A stretch of DNA of 64,000 nt from Sphyrna mokarran (Eukaryota): NCBI GenBank assembly GCA_024679065.1, contig JAGIQG010000002.1, positions 96,038,001-96,102,000 of the forward strand. Reading direction: 5' to 3'. Made by a program: the position numbers and the translations under genes. This document shows, one piece after another, positions 10,131-34,967 of the stretch; positions within the stretch are counted from its first letter, which is position 1; every line of letters starts with the position of its first letter. The notes beneath the pieces were generated by a model. It ran no database searches, was not told the DNA's origin, and was given only the letters and a program-made list of their open reading frames with translations.

Positions 10131-12818
10131 TCTATACATAGCTGTTCTTTACCCAGACACATCCATATGTAGGACCACATATCGTGACTGTAACCTCTGA
10201 AGACAGAAGTCTAAATTCAGGAAGGATTCTTGAACATCTTCAAGTAACTCTGCAGACATCTAGTGGAAAGACTGCGCCACTGCAATGGCAAATACAGAAA
10301 ATAATCTCGCTTGGTAATGTGAAATATATGTACAGTACTTTCTCCTTCTGAATAGTGTCAGAGATTATCTGTTTCCATGCGCGTTTGTTGTGTAGCAGTG
10401 ATTCCCCCTGCCAACCCCACCACCGGCCCCCTGCCCCCGGTTATGATCGAGTTTTCTTCAGTCTCGTTCTTGTGGAGTCGCTGCTACTTGCAGCATCTGA
10501 ATAGTTCAGGAAAGCTCCTTCGCCGAGTCCAGCCGAGCCTGGACTGAACATACAGGGGTCGCCGTGCTTATCAGGAAACTATAGGTTCTCACGACCCTCT
10601 AATCTCACTGGTCAAACTAAAACTGATACTAATGAACCAGACCTGAGGATAACCCGTTACCATTACTCATTCTTCACTGGGAACGAAGAAGTAATTAATA
10701 ACTCCTTCCCTTAGGTCTGGTTGGGTGGCGGGACGGAGGCGGGGGAGGGAGGGGGGAGGGTGATGTTTGCTGACAGACTGAGTGACTGGGATTAATTTCT
10801 GATCAATTTCTCACGTTTGTAATCAGGCTAAGATTGAGTTAGAAACATTCGACAAAGAGATAATGAACCGTATTACTAAACAAAATGACTGGTGGTATTT
10901 TGCTGAAATATATAGAGGCTAGATTATTGTTACTAAATGATTCGAAAAGCATTCCACATCCGTAAAATGACCAAGAAAAACCATGCAATAAATATGCCCT
11001 TTCTCGTAGCTTCATTGCTCCTCTGCATAATTTCAAATATACCATACGTTGATTTTTTTTAGTCCTGTACTGACTGATGCAAGTTATCGTATGTACCCTG
11101 AATTAATTTTAGGTATGGAGGATTTTATGTCAAATATCTGCTGAACATTACACTTCAGTCTACCTCCATAAAGTCCGGAGAACCCAGTTCACGATGAAGA
11201 TCGTGTGTGGTATAATGTTGACAGAGTGTTGTATTTAGGCATCATAAATTGACAAAAAGAAACGTTTCAATCTAAAAGCGACAGTAAAACTTTATGTTGA
11301 TACTATCCTCCACTCAAGCACCCAAAACAATATTAACAGATTATCATTTTACGACTTAATGTATGACATAATTTTTAAACAATTCACTGGGTGGGTGATG
11401 AAATGTTTGTTACTGTGCGAGTAACATCTTACTCGCAGGCTGAAAAAAGAGAAAATAAAGCCTTCATCCTTATTTTTAATGCTACCTTTATCACTGAAAC
11501 TTATAAAAGTCATTGAAGACTTTCAGAGGCAGTTGTGAACGAAAATGTGCAGATGTTTGTTTCGATATGTTTAGACAGAAAACCAAAGCCAGTCACAGAA
11601 GAGATAGTGTGTTTAAATATTCCGTGTCATAGTGTAAATTGTTCCTAAGCATCGGTGAATTGATTTGCAAGGAATAATATTCATGTATATATATAAGATC
11701 GCCCATTCATTGAACATACACAAAATATCCTCCCCAAGGATTAATGATTTTTAAAGCGGAACGTACAGTTTGATTAAAGTGTATTCTACTATACAAAATA
11801 GAAAGATGTTAAGAAAATACATGCACCTGTATTTATTCTACTACATTTTAGCTAATCGTTTTCGCACGCATGTATGGCAACAGCGATGCATCAAATACCA
11901 TGGATGAAAATTCCAAATAAAAAGCAGTAAAAAGCGCAAGATACCTTGATTTGGAATTCTTTCATATAATTTATCATCATATTGTGTAAAATAACACCTA
12001 CAGAAAACAATCTTTGTAAAGTATATAGTCATTGTCTGGTATTAAATATATTACATATCATTTGGCACATAGTAGGGATATGTAACATAGTTACAAGAGT
12101 GTAACACAAAATGATGTCAATGCAAATCATGTGCCATTAAAGGAGAACAAATAAATGATATGTGTCTTTTTAGGGACTGTGAAATTAAGTTTAGCAATTA
12201 CAAGCCTGCACAATGCGTTACAAGAAACTAACTTTGTGTTTAGATTTGACATTTAACTTGGCAAATGTAAGAAAGGTTGTTTTCCGATATTGTGGGCATA
12301 GTTATGTTATAGTGCAATAGTATGTCTTCTCTTGTTTTCTGGTGGGCGTTGGTTAGTATATCTTCAAGTTTAATAATAGTTTATGCCCACGATCGATGAT
12401 ATTTGCCGTTTAGAAAGGAACGTATATATGACTTCGTATAATTTTGATTTCATCTTCTTGCCTGGGTTTGTTGCAGCAGGCTTGAAGAGATACTTGTCTT
12501 ATTTGAGTTTAAAGCCATATATAGAATTTTTAGGTGGCAGTTGTTTACAGAATATTCATGGTTTGAGATCGTAAATTCAAGTTACCACAAAACTGGCATC
12601 TGCGCATTCATATGCGTACTGGAAATTTTTATTTGTATTCATTGTGCAAACTTAATGTCTTTGGGCTTCAATAATCTAAATAATATCACTATAGAACTTT
12701 ATATACATTTAGTTAAAGCAATGGGCACTTTTCATATATTGTAAGGCCGTATATAATAAATAATAAACATAATAATGAAAATAGTTGAATCTAATAATTC
12801 GATATTGTTAATTTTCAG

Positions 12819-13008
12819 CCCCGAGTCCTCGTTCACCCTCGTCTGCCCACCCACGAGCACAGTACACACAGGGGAAGAAAAGAATCCATCATAGCAAACT
12901 CCAAATTGCAGAACTCTTTCGAGAGCTTTTGAGGACACTTGCTTGTTGACGCTTGAATACCATAACAACAAAAAAAATTCCGCAAAACTGGGGCTAGCAG
13001 AACAACAG
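12819..13008 (+). pseudogene. HoxA14: HoxA14 pseudogene, exon 2 (homeobox helices 1-2, split homeobox)
   Basis: An acceptor ATTTTCAG (AG 12817-18) lies in phase 1, like the other Hox introns here. The exon reads ..QGKKRIHHSKLQIAEL, then a frameshift at 12917-21, then RAFEDTCLLTLEYHNNKKNSAKLGLAEQQ followed by GTAAAG. This matches the paralogue-14 pattern QRKKRIPYSKxQIxELExAFExNRFLTPExRxNISxKLGLTERQ, with the PG14-type intron before VKIWFQ. Confidence 0.88.
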
Positions 13009-13075
13009 GTAAAGGCTAGGATATTCAAAATGAAAAGAAGTTTCTGACGGGTGCAGATATAAGCATTTTCACTGG

Positions 13076-19315: not shown

Positions 19316-19964
19316 ATGACAGCGTCCGTGATACTTCATCCCCGCTGGATCGACACGGTGATGTTCGTCTACGATAATAGCTTGGATGAAATTAATAAAA
19401 ACATGGATGGATTTTCAGGAGGGAACTTCACAGCGAACCAATGCAGGAATCTGATGGCTCATCCAGCATCCCTAGCCCCCAGCTCAGCCTACTCGTCGAG
19501 TGAAGTGCCAGCCTCTGGCATTGCTGAACCTGTCAAACAGTGTAGTCCTTGTCCTGCTGCTCAAACTTCGTCCAGTGCTGCCCTTCCTTATGGATACTTT
19601 GGGAGCAGTTACTACCCCTGCCGAATGAGCCACCACAGCAGCATCAAGTCCTGTGCGCAGCCCTCCACCTTGTCTGCCTATCCAGCCGACAAATACATGG
19701 ACACGTCCGCCGGCGAGGAATTCACCTCAAGGGCTAAGGAGTTCGCTTTCTATCAAGGTTACGCGGGGCCATACCAACCGATGCCCAGCTACTTGGACGT
19801 ACCTGTGGTTCCTACCATCAGCGCTCCGGGGGAACCGAGACATGAGACATTATTACCCATGGAGAGCTACCAGCCCTGGGCAATTACCAATGGGTGGAAC
19901 GGTCAAGTCTGCTGCTCGAAAGAGCAGCCCCAAGCTACCCACCTCTGGAAATCAAGCCTGCCAG
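19316..19964 (+). CDS. HoxA13: Homeobox protein HoxA13, exon 1
   Basis: [68 protein letters not shown]. Phase-1 donor G|GTAAGT at 19965. Confidence 0.98.
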
Positions 19965-20396
19965 GTAAGTACAGATAAACACAAAAGTCTTCCAGTCAGC
20001 ACGAGAAAGTAGTACAATGAAAGGGACAAAGCATTCTGGTGTGTAAATACATACGGGTATCGGAGATAATATATAACAGAGATTATCATTAAGAAATGCT
20101 TTGCGTAATTCCCCAACAGCAGAACTGCTATGTTAACACAAACTTTAATGTATAGTGTACTATCTAAATATTATTTTGCAGGATTTTTCACAATCACTTC
20201 TCGATTCTCGCACATTTTTTTCAAAATTATAATTTCTGCTATATAAATTTATTTGCCAAAAGTGCAGTCGACATAATATCCCCATGGCGCAATCTTGTAC
20301 TTGACTCCGGCGACAGTCACCGTGTTTGAAGCCGATGGCCAGTGCTCAATGCCATGGATAATAAGGTGTGTGTGTTTTTTCCCCCTTTCTTCACAG

Positions 20397-20641
20397 ACGT
20401 CGTTTCGCATCCTTCAGACGCGAGCTCTTTCCGGCGAGGAAGAAAGAAAAGGGTGCCTTACACCAAAGTGCAGTTGAAAGAACTTGAGCGGGAATATGCC
20501 ACCAATAAATTTATCACCAAGGACAAACGAAGGAGGATATCGGCATCCACAAACCTCTCTGAGAGACAAGTCACTATTTGGTTTCAAAATAGAAGAGTCA
20601 AAGAAAAGAAAGTTCTGACTAAGCTGAAAAGTAACAGCTAG
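20397..20641 (+). CDS. HoxA13: Homeobox protein HoxA13, exon 2 (297 aa spliced product)
   Basis: Acceptor TTCACAG| followed by [72 protein letters not shown]. The exons total 649+245=894 nt and stay in frame. Confidence 0.98.
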
Positions 20642-22172
20642 TGCGACAATCCCAGAAACATGCGGACTTCATCTGAAAAAAATTAAAAATTAACTGATCT
20701 CAGCCTGAAGAAAAAAAACCCAACCACAGTTCATTTTCTTGATGCTAGATTTGTGTTTTTCCTTTCTGCCTGCTCATTGCTTTCCCTTTTGAAAAATAAT
20801 ACAGAAACACGCCAGTAAATTTCTCGGAGAGAGACATTGTATAAAGATTATGTTAAAGCAAGTTAAGGTTCAGCAGAAGTAAATCAAACCCAATAATAAA
20901 AATTTAGAAGGTTGCAATTTTGTAATGTAGAAAACAATGCGAGGTAGATTGTTTACTGCATAAAAATGTGTCCTTCAGAGGAATAAATGTTCCCATTTGA
21001 TTTATGCAGTAACCTTCACACAGGAGTCATTTAAGCACCTAAAGAAAATGTGTATTGCTGGAAAAGGTTCTGGCTAGCAAAAAGCTAGAGTGCATGATCA
21101 ATTTTTTTCCTCAGGTAAACTATGGGATATATCGTGAAATGTATAATAAAATGTATGTTTACGCACTACATTTTCTTTGGATGGGATGCGCTATCTCTAA
21201 AGATATTAATGTACAGGTAGAAAGAAGATTATATTCTAAATAGCAATGTATATGGGAAAGTAAATGCGTACTATTCTAGCATTCTACATTTCGTCTTCTG
21301 TATATATTTAGGAGCATCCACGTTCTCGTAATTAAATAGCAGAGTAGATTGCCATTTTCTACAGAGCGGAAGAAAGATCTGTCTGCAAACATGGAACCCA
21401 CCCCCTCCCGTGTAAATGAACTAAATATGAAGTCTTCTGTCTGCCTGTTATATTATCCACTTAACATAGCATTAGTCTTCACGCAGACTTAAGGCGCACA
21501 AGCTTTCTTCCTAAAGATGATAACATCTGCGTGCAATTGTATTTTTTTTAAACACTGCATTATTATATCTGCATGCACTCTCCTGCTTAGTTAATATATA
21601 CCAATAATAGTTAAAAAAAATAAATCACGAATGATAATCATGAAATTAAAATGTCTTGCATTATTATGCAGCTGTTTAATTTGTATAACCTATTGTCTTT
21701 TTCATCTAGTGAATTACTTGCATTACAACAAATTATTTCACGAATAAAAGATATTCATAAACAACAACGTCTTTTTTTTGTTAAGTAACATGACACCAGC
21801 TAACAGCTTTTATAACAAAATGTAAAGAAATATGTACGGGCCAGCTAGATTTATTCTTGATGTCAACCAGGCCGTTGGTGTAGACATTTAAAATACATTG
21901 AAATCATGCTTTCGTACTGAAGTTTTAGAAATAATCAAAGCAGAATTGCTGTGAGCTAAAGATAGTCGAGAATATTCCCTGCTGCTTTTTAATCGAACCC
22001 AGTAAACGTATCACGATAATTATTACAAAATCGGTTTTTGGAAGTGGATCCTTAAGTTTATATAGGATATGCTGAAAGTTTAAAGGCAATAAATTAGTCT
22101 CCATATTCTGATTGGAAATATAAGCTCTCTCTTTGGTTTTAATATGGAGGCAGGGCGTTAGGAGGGGGGCTT

Positions 22173-22216
22173 AAACCTTGACCTTGACGAAAACAGATAG
22201 TCTTTGACCTTGACTA
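22173..22216 (-). promoter_or_regulatory. Two TCAAGGTCA / DR0-type nuclear-receptor elements 3' of HoxA13
   Basis: AAACCT-TGACCT-TGACGA (22173-90) and TGACCT-TGACTA (22205-16). Confidence 0.5.
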
Positions 22217-22257
22217 TTAACAGCTCATGAATAGTCATGAAGTGGATTGGTAGAGCA

Positions 22258-22276
22258 AGTGCGCCATCTACTGTTA
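22258..22276 (-). promoter_or_regulatory. CTCF motif between HoxA13 and HoxA11
   Basis: The - strand reads TAACAGTAGATGGCGCACT, matching the CTCF core CCASYAGRKGGCRS with one mismatch. Confidence 0.65.
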
Positions 22277-24632
22277 AATCGGAGGATACCCGTTTCTACA
22301 GGCTTTGAGCAAGCAAACAAACAATTATTTCAACAATAAAAGAGCAAAGGGTGAACTAGGACTGTCAGATGTAGGTCAGTAACACGAATAATTAATTGTG
22401 CATTGCTCAAATGCAAAAAAGCAACGAGACAATTTATTTAAGAATTTCAACAGCTCGTCAGGAATTATTTGCTTATTATAAATAATAAAACCTACAAAAA
22501 CAACAACCAACTTCAGGTATTACACTAGGATTACAAGCGCTGTGTAGAATCAAAATAAAGAGCTATGGTAACGTGATTTGTAGATTAATATTAGCGGCTG
22601 GTTTAAATTTCAATTAAATTTCTAAGATAGCTAACAAAGGGGCAATCAAACTGATCAGATAAAGTTGACATAGCTTTGTTTTAATGATATGTGATATATT
22701 TAATGATATATTTGATCAGCCTATAACGTGCTCGTCCACATTTACTTTTGCATCACTCTATCTCAGTGCCTCTCTGTATAGTGTCTATGTGCTCTTATTT
22801 ATTTGTTGGTCAAGTTTATCCACTCACAATCAGACTCGTATACACTTTCCTGATCATGTAATTAAATATTTCAATGTGCAATTTCACAAAACTAAAATAG
22901 TTGCTTATCTCTGCTTTTTCGTGCTAGAGGTATTAATGACATTTTGCAAGAAATAACCGGAGATTTTAAGAATTGTTCTCAGCTGTTTAAAAAGTATACA
23001 GTCTACATCATCTCAAATTTAACGTGTGGTTAACTGAATGTGAAATTCCACAAGGTTTTTTTCGAAGGTAGAAACGTGCCTCTATCTGCATTTGTGTCTT
23101 TGCATCAACCAAACATTTATTTAAAAATACCTAATTGCAGATGAATTTCATAGACATAAAAATAGTATTGTTTGAAACGTGAATATTATAGAACTGTGAT
23201 CTTTGCACTTTTTTTGCGTCCAACCTAAGTAGGCTTGCTTATGTAAACAGTACATTTTTCTTCCATCTCTTTCTAATCAATGTTAAGTGTGCAATGCACA
23301 TTCCAAAGCAATTTATTTATTTTCACTTGTGTCCTTACTTAACACAGCCCGAGCCGCAACCCTGGAAATGTCCATCTGAAAAGTGAAAGCTGATTTGTCA
23401 AAATGTTATGGGATTAAAGAATTCTACATTCATCACATGACACATTCGAGCCAATCACGCCATCCTCTTGTAAAATCCGTTGCAATATTTGTTGGAAAGT
23501 ACTTGAGGAGAACCACCCACATTCTCTCTGATCAAGGCAGGTCCAGTGATACAATATCGTTGTTTTTTAGATGCTCCGAGTTGAAGTATGTGGAAGATGT
23601 CTATTTACACGGAAATGGAAGAAAAATAGTTAATCAGCGTCTATTAGTTAGGTGTAACTATTGTTGATTGGTTTTATAGATGGATCATCAATGCTTTCCA
23701 AACAACTTAGTCAAGTACTGAATCTTCTTTCAGCGTGTTCTTTTTTTGTCGTTCTTGGGCTTTAAGTAAAATAAGCTAAAGCTAAAAGACGAGAATGAGC
23801 AGTCAATGACACATCTCTGATTACGTGGAACATTTCGTGTTATTAATTTATCTCAAAATAACGTTTCACGTAGAATTAATTAAATTGTTAGTATTACTCT
23901 TATGGTATAAGCACAGCAAAACAGAAAATGCAATCAATTGGAACAGACGTTCTGGAATATAATCATTCAGCTTCCTACCCTGCCAGTCGCTCTGTGCCAA
24001 TGCATTCATCCTGAACTGTGAATGTCTATTTACAGTAAATACATGTACCTTTTATGAGTACAGTGGCGATCACGAGCGATTAAACTAGTTTATTGTAAAA
24101 ACAATAATGCATTTGGATCATTGAATTTGCGCTGCAGATACCCTCGATAATGGTCTCCTGTGCAGTCCTCGTGGAGAAGCTTACACATGTCACTTCAGAG
24201 TGCCATAAAACTATAACATTGCGATAGAGATACACGAAACGAAACGTTATTAAACGAACTTTAAAAGGCTTTATGCGCTGAATCATCTATAATTATAGCA
24301 TCGCCTATTATATGTTGATGTATTCATCAACATTGGAAAACGAAACAAAGAAGTCATTGTCGAGAACTGAAGGCTTATTAAGACCAGGATATGTTTTCAG
24401 TTTGCTGGTATTTTCATTTTGCTGGTGTAAACTTCGCTCCTTTAGGGGGAAACGAAATGCAAAAACATGTGCTTTTGTTTCTAGTAAATTAAGTTGGAGT
24501 CATTGTTGAATTTGCAGTCGATGTGTTTATTGATCTTGATAAAAAAAATAGTTTATTTGATTTATTTTGTTCTTTTTTAAATGCGGCTCAGCCACACTAT
24601 CATTTCTGAGGTCATACATCACTCAATGAAGG

Positions 24633-24658
24633 ATATATATATATATATATATATATAT
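24633..24658. repeat. (AT)n microsatellite
   Basis: Perfect AT dinucleotide run of about 13 units. Confidence 0.95.
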
Positions 24659-27600
24659 AAGCAACGATTTATGTGTTTGCGTGTCGCGTTAACTTCATAT
24701 CATATAATAAATTTATCTAAAATTTAATATTTTTAATTATGGGAGCAATAAAAGTTCGCGCTTAATGATTAGTGTGATCAATGCAATACAGCATTTACTT
24801 AAAATACTCGACCTGACTTCAACGATGAACCACAGATTGCTAAAAGTGGATGTTTAATACTATCCGCACCAATGACCATCGACAGACCCCCGCCCCGCCC
24901 CAAAGAAGACAGCATATATTTGCTTGAAAAGGTTGTTTATAATTTTTAAAATAAAATCTCGCCAGACAATTTATGCAATTGTTGAACTTACTTTATAATA
25001 TGCAACCAACTGCGACTGAACCGCGGTGAACTTGTTTTATTTTGTAATATATCTGGTTCCAATTAAATCAAATCTGCTTGGATGTACATTGGTAATTGAA
25101 TCGTTTTTTTCCTGCCATGTGCAGGAATACAATAATAGAGTATACTAGATCATGGGTCGGAAAAATTAAATCCTTCAGAAATAAGATATTTAGGAACGCA
25201 CATAGTTGGCAATGTGCCCAATGTAAAATACAAATATAGAATTGTATTTTAAAACAATCATGCCATTAATGCAATCTCAAATGTTGAATTTACAGACAAT
25301 CTACCAACGCATATTTGCGAATATTGATGTTGTTCGTGCATATTAATGACAGAATATAAATACTATTGTATATGTGTGTGCTTATACATATCGATAAACT
25401 AAACGGGTAAATGCCATACTTAGATATTACATATATTAAACGATTTTATTTCATATTGCTACATAGATACATAGGTACACATTCACACATATATAATACA
25501 GCAAACTAGTAACAATTGATATAATATTTATGGCAGTTCATACTGCGGGCATTTTGAGTCTGAAATGTTTCATTCATCTGAGTGTTAAGTTTATAAAATA
25601 ACACTAGAAATAATTCAAATATTAGCTTTGCTGCATTTCTGTTGTATTTCGACGAAAATATACTTCATTTCGCAGAAATCAAAACAATAAAATGACTATT
25701 TGCAAACGTTCCTAAGTATATTCCAGCTAACTATACATTTATGTAATGATGTCGCTATAATTCAACTTACAGCATTATAATATCACGCATTCAAATATAT
25801 CCGTTAATGCCATGTACCACATTTTGTACAACATAAAACTCGAGATTTTCTTCCAATCATATGTTCGCCTATTTCACTTGCCCGACTTTCTATGTTGGGC
25901 ATAAAATAAAGATTACATTTAATTATCTGCGTTTGTATCTCCAATTCTGAGATTGCAATAGTGATTGAATGTTACGAAAACAAAATATATATATTTCATT
26001 CTGTAATGTAGTGCACTTAATTTCTGTCATCAATTATAATATTTTCAATCAGCTTGAACTAAGCTGTTTCTAGCAATATAGCGCTGTTCAATTGTTTACC
26101 GAAATAACACGGGGCAAAAATGTTCTCTGCAATCAAGTTCGAAGAATCCGCATTTTGAAATTCGTGAGCGCATTTATTTCTCTGCCTATAGAATACAATA
26201 TTGTAGAATGCTTTTCTCCCCTTTGTTAGGTGTGATTGGTTTCAAATAGTTAATGAATGCGCAGTAAAACTTTAGCTTTTCACCTCTGTTTGGGCAGATG
26301 TAAGCAGATAGAATATAACTTCCAGTGGCAAATTCGTTGACAGTTATGTGAAAACACGCTCTTAAAAAATGAAGCAGCATATCACCATCTGAACTTTGCC
26401 CATTGACCTCAAAACATTTATTAAGTCGCACAATCAGAAATTATATATAACCGCATTCCGAGTCACTGTCATCCAAAGTAATTTACATATCTCATTAATA
26501 AAGCATCAAGAAAGAACACGCATGCAATTCATTAATTGTAGCTTTCATTAAAATGCAATTCACTCTTTCTCCTCTGGTACACACATTCGCGATTAGTTTT
26601 CTTGTTGACATTGAACACAAATTCACTATTTCATTGTTATTCCATATGTTCTTCCAGTTGAAAAGGGTTCAGTCATTTTGTCACATTGCAAGTTTAGTGT
26701 GCACACATGCGACGTGTGTGGGTCCTGAATGTTCATCTGGAAGACAACTGTATCACACCACGGCTTGGAATATGCTAACCTGACAAAGATTAGGTGCAAT
26801 TAGAAGACGGCCGCACGTGTGTTTGTGTGGGCACGCCGACTGGACCCTGCAAAGATTTTTTTAAAAGACTTTAGGAACACACCGCACCTGTGCGTTTTGC
26901 AGCACCGGCTATTTTTGAAAGATTGTGGATTAGAAAGTTGGAAGAATCCATCTGAAACCCAGAGGAAAATAATTCCGTTGCTCGTGCCTCGGGATTTGCT
27001 GCATTTTGGAGGTGAGTACAGCGCTTCTTAACGGAGAAAATCCTGAAATTCCAGGCGGCGTTCCTCTTGCCAAGTTCAAAGATCTTCCAAGTTCAAAAGC
27101 GACCAGTTGGAGTGAAACTCTGTATCTCTTCTCGCTATTCCAATGCTCATGGCTGCTTGGCCTAGCTCTCATATTGCATTCGGGAAGAGGGTCCTGCTAA
27201 CACAGAATGGCATTTTACTGTTTGTTTTCATGAATGGGAACACTGCCGAAAATTACCAGCAGACTATCGCTGAATTTGCTACGACTGCATATTGCTCTGG
27301 CTTTTTTTTTGGAATTGCGATATTGAAGCCCACTAAGTTACAAAGATGCTGCTGCAGTGAAGGGTATAACTCCATTTTCTTTTTATTATCGTGCCCACCA
27401 AGTTCAAAAACATGACATGGACTCCCCTACTCATCTTAATTTAACATTTTGTGTAAAAGTGTTAACGGGATACCAGGCTCAAAATAAAACCTCGCGATAG
27501 ATTGAAAAATACGGACAAGCGAAACAGCTTTCACGTGCATTTGTAAATAAAGCATCCACATTAAGAAGGTTATACCTAAATTATTCAGAGGGGAAGGTTC

Positions 27601-32830: not shown

Positions 32831-32892
32831 GACCATGTTTAGCTGTGCGAATGCAAGCTATTCTTGCGCTAGGGGACCCCAAGCAAGCGATG

Positions 32893-33499
32893 ATGGATTT
32901 TGATGAGCGGGTTTCTTGTGGCTCTAATCTTTATTTGCCTAGCTGTACCTATTATGTCTCCGGTCCGGATTTCTCCAGCCTGCCTTCTTTTTTACCTCAA
33001 ACGCCGGCTTCTCGCCCCATGACATACTCTTACTCGTCCAATATCCCCCAGGTTCAACCTGTGAGAGAAGTTACCTTCAGAGACTATGCCATCGATCCCT
33101 CCAATAAGTGGCATCACAGGGGCAATCTGCCCCATTGCTATTCCGCAGAGGAGCTGATGCACAGAGAGTGCCTGCCTGCCAGCACCATGGGCGAGATGTT
33201 AATGAAAAATAGCGCCAGCGTTTACCATCACAGCTCCAACGCGTCCTCCAGCTTCTACAACCCGGTGGGGAGGAACGGGGTGCTGCCGCAAGGATTTGAC
33301 CAGTTCTTCGAGACAGCCTACGGTTCCAGCGAGAATCAGCAGTCGGAGTATTGCGGAGAGAAGAGTCCAAATAAAGTGCCGTCTGCGGCAACTTCAAGTT
33401 CGGAGACTTCCAGGGTGTCCGTGGAGAAAGAGACGAGCCCCGGGAGCAGCAGCCCGGAGTCTTCTTCCGGCAACAATGAGGAGAAAGGCAGCAACTCCA
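32893..33499 (+). CDS. HoxA11: Homeobox protein HoxA11, exon 1
   Basis: (M)[69 protein letters not shown]. Phase-1 donor A|GTAGGT at 33500. In-frame ATGs also occur at 32890 and 32851. Confidence 0.97.
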
Positions 33500-34734
33500 G
33501 TAGGTAGAGTCAGTGCCCAGTTGTGAGAGAAAGTTTTGCGATCTCGCGCGCTGCTGTTAAAATTTTTATGTGCTGTTTTATAAGCATATAAGAGGGTTTA
33601 TGGATGGCCTGTAGATTTCCCAACAAAACTTTTTTTATATAAATGACAGGATCACGTGTTCAGCTCTGAAATTGGCCGTGAAATAACTCCAGCCAATCGC
33701 TGCATTAAAATACTTCCACCGGCACCTCAAAAAGTGAGATTGGGGTTAAAAATCCGATCATTTATATGACTGGGTGCAAAGTTAGCAAAATTGACTGCTG
33801 GCGGCTTGCGATTTTTGCGTGTATTAATACAGCTCAACAATTCTATAAAACACACGTGTTGACACAAAAACTCTATTTATAGGTTGTATTCAGTTCCATG
33901 AGTAACCGCTTTAAAACATAATGTGGCAAAATGACATTTTTAACAGCTATATAAATACTGCAATACCTCTAGCATAGAGCTTTCCATCATAAAAACTTAT
34001 TTCAGGGCCGGGTGACCGTATTTTATTTAATAATCGCATTTTATAGCTCGACGTTTGATCGACGCAGTTCTAACGCTACAATATTGCTTCTGAAGGCAGC
34101 TCCATGTTGAGTTTTACAGCGCAGAATGGCTAAAGAATTAAGCCCCCTCCCCTAAGGAACGGATTGTTGCTACCAAACATCTTCTGAAAAAAAAAGACAG
34201 CTCAAGTTTCCCATTCCCCAGTCCCTTTTAGTTTGAACTCAGCAGATAAAATAAAACTTAAAGAAACTTCCAGCTTTTCATCCATTTGCTGTCTTTAACG
34301 CACGGATAGTGGGACACACCACCTTAAAGAGAAGCGTTTCCCTTTTCAAAATAAAAATTGTAGCTAATCTCTGGATGCGGGAAGTTCATTTATAACTTTG
34401 ATATCATCAGAATGGGAGCTAGCTTCAACTTAACAATTCCACAACCATTAGAACAAATATAGATCGAGGCAGCCATCTTTTGTCCCAGAGACCAGTCAAA
34501 ATATGAAAGAAAAGAGGTGGTATGCTTTAGAGAACGATTCGGTACTTTGGATACTGCGGGGTGAAAAGAAAGTATTGTCTGAAAATCAGGAGCTATGGAG
34601 ATCTCCTCCCACCCCCACCAAGCCCTGTGAATATGTGCACAGCAAAGCATATATTAACAATGCATGGAAAGAAAGATGATGTCTCCTCTACATTTCCAAT
34701 GATCAAAGTTTAACGTACTATTTACCTGTTACAG

Positions 34735-34967
34735 GTGGCCAGCGTACACGCAAAAAAAGGTGCCCCTACACCAAATACCAGATCAGGGAGCTGGAGAGGG
34801 AATTTTTTTTCAGTGTTTATATCAACAAAGAGAAGCGGCTGCAACTTTCCCGGATGCTCAACTTAACCGACCGGCAAGTGAAAATTTGGTTTCAGAACAG
34901 GAGGATGAAGGAGAAGAAGTTAAACAGGGACCGCCTTCAATATTACACCACGAATCCATTGCTTTGA
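34735..34967 (+). CDS. HoxA11: Homeobox protein HoxA11, exon 2 (279 aa spliced product; missing from the ORF track in this frame)
   Basis: Acceptor GTTACAG| followed by [77 protein letters not shown]. The exons total 607+233=840 nt. Confidence 0.98.

Follow-up and report, generated by a model that had tools for sequence, protein, structure and literature searches.

The window (i.e., the whole stretch of 64,000 nucleotides analysed here) covers the 5′ part of the shark HoxA cluster, with HoxA13, HoxA11, HoxA10, miR-196 and HoxA9. The module considered below lies between HoxA13 (coding span 19316..20641, plus strand, with ORFs and start located) and HoxA11 (coding span 32890..34967, plus strand, with its own promoter at ~32720). 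No homeobox was found between these two genes in a homeodomain search of the own genome, in which 150 of 156 candidates were scored; the same search led to HoxD (C113), HoxB (C849) and a HoxC fragment (C1648). From these, 70 kb of HoxD, 130 kb of HoxB and 70 kb of HoxC were compared, while the A, B and D clusters, taken on both strands, form the 528 kb set used for scanning. Exon 1 of the own-genome HoxD12 displays 96% identity to shark HoxD12 proteins. Homeodomain and profile searches did not yield HoxC12 in the own genome, and HoxC itself is a microsatellite-laden contig with HoxC11 and HoxC10 (L009-L015), in which HoxC12 was not found either. Note that HoxD14 (L007) looks intact, with a split homeobox, and that the window also holds a HoxA14 pseudogene (a relic of the exon 1 start at 10190-10290 and a frameshifted homeobox exon at 12817-13009 with acceptor and donor) as well as broken ORFs at 850-1730, which we take to be the end of a LINE reverse transcriptase. 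A positional landmark is given by a conserved TGACCT-repeat element (22167..22280, plus strand) that is common to HoxA, HoxB and HoxD (blastn E=1.8e-8 between the HoxA and HoxD copies) and precedes the HoxA module by 1.25 kb, its HoxB counterpart by 2.5 kb and the HoxD12 promoter by 2.9 kb. In HoxB, the element also includes an E-box and a CCAAT of its own, 8 nt from each other.

The module consists of an E-box block, ATCACATGAC (23432..23441, plus strand, E-box core at 23434), a predicted USF-type site, and a CCAAT block, AGCCAATCAC (23449..23458, plus strand, CCAAT at 23451), a predicted NF-Y site. They are followed, 159 nt below the CCAAT, by CGGAAATG (23610..23617, plus strand), a Hox12-type start context with a short MEEK* frame. 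The original prediction described this arrangement as an orphan Hox-type promoter module closely mirroring the HoxA13 promoter. Indeed, its 36-mer, orientation, CGGAAATG and short frame are all present in the sequence, and the start-to-start spacing from E-box to CCAAT is 17 nt here, 18 nt in HoxA13 and 16 nt in HoxA9, as it had been given. An E-box followed by CCAAT within 5-25 nt occurs three times on the plus strand of the window (HoxA13 promoter, HoxA9 promoter and 23434), with one further match on the minus strand. The 10-12 nt pattern has eight occurrences across the A, B, D and C clusters, namely four plus-strand Hox promoters (A13, B13, A9 and D9), the HoxA module and three on the minus strand, and shuffling the 12 kb intergenic stretch 400 times produced it in 4 cases. 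As a separate observation, an antisense-oriented E-box/CCAAT module in HoxD (L002, joined-sequence position 66392, minus strand) is followed 190 nt on by CGGAAATG; located 3′ of HoxD8, it is possibly an antisense promoter, judging from its sequence.

The close resemblance to HoxA13 was overstated, since the 36-mer scores 32 against the A13 promoter and the best scores of 40 shuffles average 33; a special likeness to HoxA13 was thus rejected, the shared part being the two motif cores only. The best real 36-mer matches in the 528 kb are the HoxD11 promoter (37) and then a HoxB intergenic site (35), neither score being significant alone. The term ‘Hox-type’ is also unsupported in its strict sense, because an E-box 10-12 bp from a CCAAT is the genome-wide USF/NF-Y arrangement, described as a general composite element (PMC4889920). 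The HoxA module, with 11 nt, follows the spacing rule of this composite, which is a general vertebrate grammar and silent on origin, and binding at the module is predicted only.

A twin of the module was identified in the HoxB cluster (L026:3352-3378, minus strand), at a place in the cluster matching that of the HoxA module. The two share 19 of 20 motif bases (block 1 is identical and block 2 agrees at 9/10) and a 7-nt spacer, and CGGAAATG follows ~150 nt further on (146 nt in HoxB, 151 nt in HoxA), which makes the twin a candidate promoter remnant of HoxB12. When up to five mismatches were allowed, 16 sites were found in the 528 kb, four of which carry CGGAAATG within 300 nt: the HoxA module, the HoxB twin, the HoxD12 promoter and one unrelated HoxD site. 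The number expected by chance was 0.13 among the 15 non-self sites. Genome-wide, the pattern with one mismatch at most occurs in four places, including the HoxA module (five for the control pattern), and the two non-Hox places are members of a repeat family without CGGAAATG. Between and around the anchors, no alignment above chance was obtained for the HoxA module with its twin, or for either of them with D12, and MAFFT did not bring the three start contexts into register; the best case among the segments compared was reached by 19 of 500 shuffles and 81 of 500 real-DNA controls.

One link between the module and Hox12 is the start context. CGGAAATG, with 15 occurrences in the 528 kb, serves shark HoxD12 as its true start context and is absent from the 15 other Hox starts (1 of 16 examined). 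A metagenome scan, run after the Hox12 idea had formed, confirmed two of 21 pattern matches as Hox12 contigs, i.e., a fish-type HoxC12 (L033) with CACGTG, a CCAAT 18 nt on and CGGAAATG as true start, and a fish-type HoxD12 (L034) with an E-box block at 9/10, a decayed CCAAT and GGAAATG. Shark HoxD12 displays the reverse of the latter, its CCAAT being kept (block 2 at 9/10) and its E-box decayed. Speaking against a specific link, a CCAAT with CGGAAATG 40-70 nt on occurs 13 times genome-wide, versus 4 for the control, and the unrelated HoxD site has both the E-box/CCAAT pair and CGGAAATG. The HoxA module has the composition found in Hox12-type promoters, with E-box and CCAAT blocks separated by a 7-8 nt spacer and then the CGGAAATG start context.

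A PG12 model, weighted only on three Hox12 promoters (own-genome HoxD12, L033 and L034), ranked the HoxA module second in the 528 kb, after the training site D12 and first among non-training sites, and the HoxB twin fourth, behind the D13 promoter; block widths, distance ranges and layout had been set with the A and B sites already in view. With the PG13, PG11 and PG9 models, the HoxA module came 20th, 24th and 11th and the twin 21st, 33rd and 34th among 48 listed peaks. Scored without the start context, the HoxA site ties with the HoxD13 promoter (21.4 vs 21.5), and it is the start context that separates the module from other posterior promoters. Similarity to Hox12 upstream regions, proposed beforehand as a check, was therefore found in motif order, spacing and start context but not in the flanks, which do not align above controls (the D12 5′ region scores 1048 against the HoxA module, the mean of 2106 tiles); because of this, descent from a Hox12 promoter is inferred from motif order and position only. 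Overall, the idea of a promoter relic was strengthened, since the resemblance of module and start context is to Hox12 genes in particular, and both reappear in HoxB.

The same does not apply to the protein. The resemblance once seen between MEEK*LIS and the Hox12 protein is not significant, and a coding relic at the ATG is not supported by blastp (E=11 for the ORF overlapping the module), by HMMER with a profile of 10 HoxD12 and 10 HoxC12 proteins (nothing significant over 20.7-32.8 kb), by a frameshift-aware codon profile (10.8-14.9 at the HoxA module vs shuffled maxima averaging 18-19) or by alignment tests. For a homeobox remnant on the plus strand, the best homeodomain scores were equalled or exceeded in 114, 83 and 15 of 150 shuffles. 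An ATG-anchored Hox12 coding test remained weak, the score being reached by 19-127 (A) and 11-187 (B) of 500 control ATGs over six settings. The codon-profile method can nevertheless see decayed Hox genes, because it detects the HoxA14 pseudogene in the same window (homeobox 33.7 and exon 1 26.3 with the D14 query, compared with a shuffled-maximum mean near 19 that was measured on the 12 kb interval). The G of the ATG (G23617) reads A in two relatives’ runs (X19 and X8), giving ATA, and the first seven bases of CGGAAATG are unchanged in the relatives compared. As coding relics, both the neighbouring-frame ORF at 23380-23667 (profile, blastp and alignment tests) and an IWFQ frame near 25050 were rejected. 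Further downstream, 24372-24413 reads LLRPGYVFSLLVF and resembles the Hox12 N-terminus, and relatives differ there by a substitution and a 1-nt insertion. This stretch was reached by 27 and 6 of 150 shuffles at two settings, ranks 8th of the peaks in the 528 kb, several of which are non-coding, and is out of register with the anchor; we treat the likeness as chance because the score is borderline and the stretch lies 760 nt from the anchor. The module does occupy the position of a HoxA12 pseudogene, between Hox13 and Hox11 on the Hox strand, but is not classed as one, because coding homology was looked for in these tests and not found.

Data from relatives were compared for 7 distinct runs of 24 listed, with contigs placed at 80% likeness, and show that the module is conserved in the related organisms compared. 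A conserved block surrounds it (23198..23512, without strand), with only 2 differences in 180 nt in X19 and 5 in 298 nt in X20, whereas other pieces differ at 163/2488 (X19) and 77/1207 (X20), i.e., ~6.5% (Fisher p=0.001 and 0.0005). In the genomic runs, neither motif block shows any change (3/3). Within these three runs, variable sites number 1/73 in the module zone vs 16/224 in exon 1 of the RNA described below (p=0.08, not significant).

Three small contig sets (X19, X22 and X23), from two organisms and two studies and with an RNA status that is unrecorded or a guess, start on the left at 23556, 23534 and 23530, respectively. These left ends fall within 27 nt, without loose ends, and define a likely transcription start zone (23530..23556, plus strand). 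Genomic contigs cross this zone unbroken in 3/3 runs, and by the standard of the tool such left ends are a weak hint. In X19 and X23, which differ in both organism and study, a joint runs from 23705 to 24138, with 29-30 nt on its sides, and delimits exon 1 of a putative non-coding RNA (23530..23705, plus strand), a 432-nt intron (23706..24137, plus strand) and exon 2, as far as examined (24138..26100, plus strand), with contigs continuing past 26065 and 26099. Base 23706 is G in the runs of relatives (4/4) and C only in the own genome, among five compared; therefore, the intron is GT..AG on the plus strand in relatives, and the putative RNA is sense, while the donor reads CT in the own genome. 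It is possible that the splice donor was lost in the own species, that it is a variant or that the assembly is in error. Unspliced contigs are also present and carry no strand information.

The longest ATG ORF over 23530-26100 is 65 aa, spliced or not, showing no coding potential. Uncovered stretches (much of 22.2-23.3 kb in the small runs) are not evidential, and contig depth was not used for expression. These observations point to a sense RNA starting ~80-105 nt below the CCAAT, the RNA status of the runs being a guess. The suggestion that the promoter was kept to drive a non-coding RNA thus gains in that spliced, sense, RNA-type contigs start just downstream in relatives, and stays provisional in that their RNA status is guessed. 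Position and orientation are those of an lncRNA issued from a lost gene, as judged by paralogy with HoxD12 and by splice polarity.

Altogether, it is likely, on the sequence evidence, that the module is a retained HoxA12 promoter with a twin in HoxB, probably driving a sense spliced non-coding RNA. The two alternatives of the original prediction, a relic of HoxA12 or a promoter for a non-coding RNA, are thus compatible and each partly right, once the coding relic and the likeness to HoxA13 are set aside.

Part of the evidence leans toward Hox11. The 5′ half of the module is closer to it, the HoxD11 promoter that gave the best 36-nt match having an identical block 1 and similar preceding bases, and the distance from block to start context (172-177 nt in A and B) is nearer to that of PG11 (163-165) than to that of D12 (94). 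Together with the general motif grammar and the absence of coding homology, this would suit an ancient sense promoter common to A and B that does not come from Hox12, either a Hox11- or Hox13-type duplicate or a convergent non-coding RNA promoter built on USF/NF-Y/ETS grammar. We consider such an origin unlikely, as HoxA11 retains its own promoter 9 kb on, PG11 promoters have neither the CCAAT block nor the CGGAA context, and it is the PG12 model that ranks the site near the top, the PG11 and PG13 models placing it far lower.

The contigs that continue past 26.1 kb, with a 3′ end beyond, could also mean that the promoter feeds a distal first exon of HoxA11, or that the transcribed region is an internal part of a long HoxA13 read-through resembling mouse LncRNA-HIT. 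This RNA is reported as sense and located between Hoxa13 and Hoxa11 (PMC4669167). The TGACCT element of HoxA lies inside it, HIT probe 7 matching 19/20 at 22167-22186 (the comparison covers probe 7 of S2 Table), and X19 has short pieces at 22100-22187, 22519-22664 and 23333-23512, upstream of the start zone. Against this, the contigs of three runs begin close together a short way past the CCAAT box; moreover, HIT reportedly has one exon only, and its anchor is found 1.35 kb upstream of those left ends, which makes an explanation of this kind quite improbable.

Our searches also revealed a short, old interspersed repeat family (L030, L032 and L035-L039) with a conserved core of 45-60 nt ending in an E-box; this core supplies block 1, sometimes with a CCAAT after it. 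Least probable of all is that the two motifs were brought together by chance or by a repeat and that their transcription is noise or the 3′ terminal part of an RNA antisense to Hoxa11, since, despite a match of one repeat member (L030) over 43 columns at 86%, the listing of HOXA11-AS for bamboo shark in a review table (PMC8293171) and the splice donor lost in the own species, the module matches only 1/7 family members, the very one picked by the pattern itself, and without the family’s upstream part (so that a repeat origin is disfavoured), its intron is GT..AG on the plus strand, and it is conserved and has a twin in HoxB.

We therefore return to the retained HoxA12 promoter and to how it may work. 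The module would be the promoter of the lost HoxA12, retained after the coding sequence decayed, and would go back to a Hox12 promoter that was carried by the shared ancestor of clusters A and B. USF-type and NF-Y factors would bind the two blocks, and RNA polymerase II would start ~80-105 nt below the CCAAT, near 23.53-23.56 kb. CGGAAAT, whose core we take to be ETS-like, may have survived as a factor-binding site rather than as a start codon. Selection would keep the promoter and the act of transcription, so that the Hox12 slot, flanked by HoxA13 and HoxA11, stays occupied by an active unit with Hox timing, while the RNA body would be free to drift, its splice donor being even lost, as it seems, in the own species. 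That selection acts on the activity of the promoter and not on the RNA is suggested by the contrast between a conserved promoter block and a drifting body and donor. By analogy, we hypothesize that the unit helps to time HoxA13 and HoxA11 or to insulate them: in HoxB, CTCF sites reportedly outlasted the loss of genes (bioRxiv 2024.07.20.604409), and lower 5′ HoxA expression is reported when mouse LncRNA-HIT is knocked down (PMC4669167).

A wider scenario can be proposed more tentatively, and we regard it as doubtful in its entirety. The Hox12 protein would have been lost in the A/B ancestor, before the second vertebrate genome doubling, the promoter then being copied into both clusters and kept as a coding-free placeholder whose transcription times or insulates Hox13 from Hox11, with, in mammals, LncRNA-HIT as its descendant or neighbour. 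The A and B sites, with a 7-nt spacer and ~150 nt to the start context, and those of C and D, with 8 nt and ~70 nt, fit the grouping of Hox clusters into A/B and C/D (PMC10972751).

If true, the survival of a promoter in each of the two clusters would offer physical evidence for the former existence of HoxA12 and HoxB12 and would help to date their loss. It would also mean that a gene slot of a Hox cluster can outlive its protein since the regulatory unit is still needed. In addition, the module is a concrete, deletable target of 30 bp and the own species a possible natural splice-donor mutant; both could be used to probe if transcription in the interval from Hox13 to Hox11 has a bearing on the timing of the two genes in fins and tail. 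To our knowledge, HoxA12 is known only as a gap in Hox inventories. HoxB12 is given as a gap in amniotes (bioRxiv 2024.07.20.604409). Our literature searches brought up no description of a promoter remnant of HoxA12 or HoxB12, although older footprinting work may list it as an anonymous element; mentions of hoxa12 or hoxb12 in the portions of the literature examined do not concern a relic, and no mention of such an RNA was found in the text of PMC7932699.

Compared with known systems, the HoxA module resembles the promoters of HoxC12 and HoxD12, which likewise have an E-box, a CCAAT 17-18 nt on and then CGGAAATG or GGAAATG, and likewise occupy the slot after Hox13 (in shark D12, also after a TGACCT element). 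It differs from them in that no reading frame follows it and in its geometry, since it has the shorter spacer and the longer distance to the start context. The HoxA14 and HoxB14 pseudogenes of cartilaginous fishes (PMC3707753) are likewise remnants of a lost posterior Hox gene inside a cluster, but the HoxA14 relic keeps detectable coding sequence whereas the HoxA module keeps promoter-level motifs only.

On the RNA side, mouse LncRNA-HIT (9530018H14Rik; PMC4669167) is likewise sense and located between Hoxa13 and Hoxa11, but the putative RNA of the HoxA module is spliced and starts 1.35 kb downstream of the HIT probe match; we thus do not regard it as an orthologue of LncRNA-HIT, given the single-exon structure reported for the latter and the position of the probe-matching element upstream of the contig starts. 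Nor do we regard it as an orthologue of HOXA11-AS, as the orientation of the intron is not antisense. A closer parallel is offered by lncRNAs that arose from lost coding genes, such as XIST, from LNX3, and JPX (Hezroni et al. 2017, PMC5577775), among which we found no Hox case in the main text of that study. In these reported cases, the transcript likewise lies at the position and on the strand of the lost gene, with little that can be aligned and with regulatory DNA retained. Unlike for XIST and JPX, the lost HoxA12 is known only from its paralogues HoxC12 and HoxD12, the remnant would occur twice (in the A and B clusters) and the evidence consists of motif order, not alignment. With these differences, the HoxA module likely belongs with the lncRNA fossils of lost genes.
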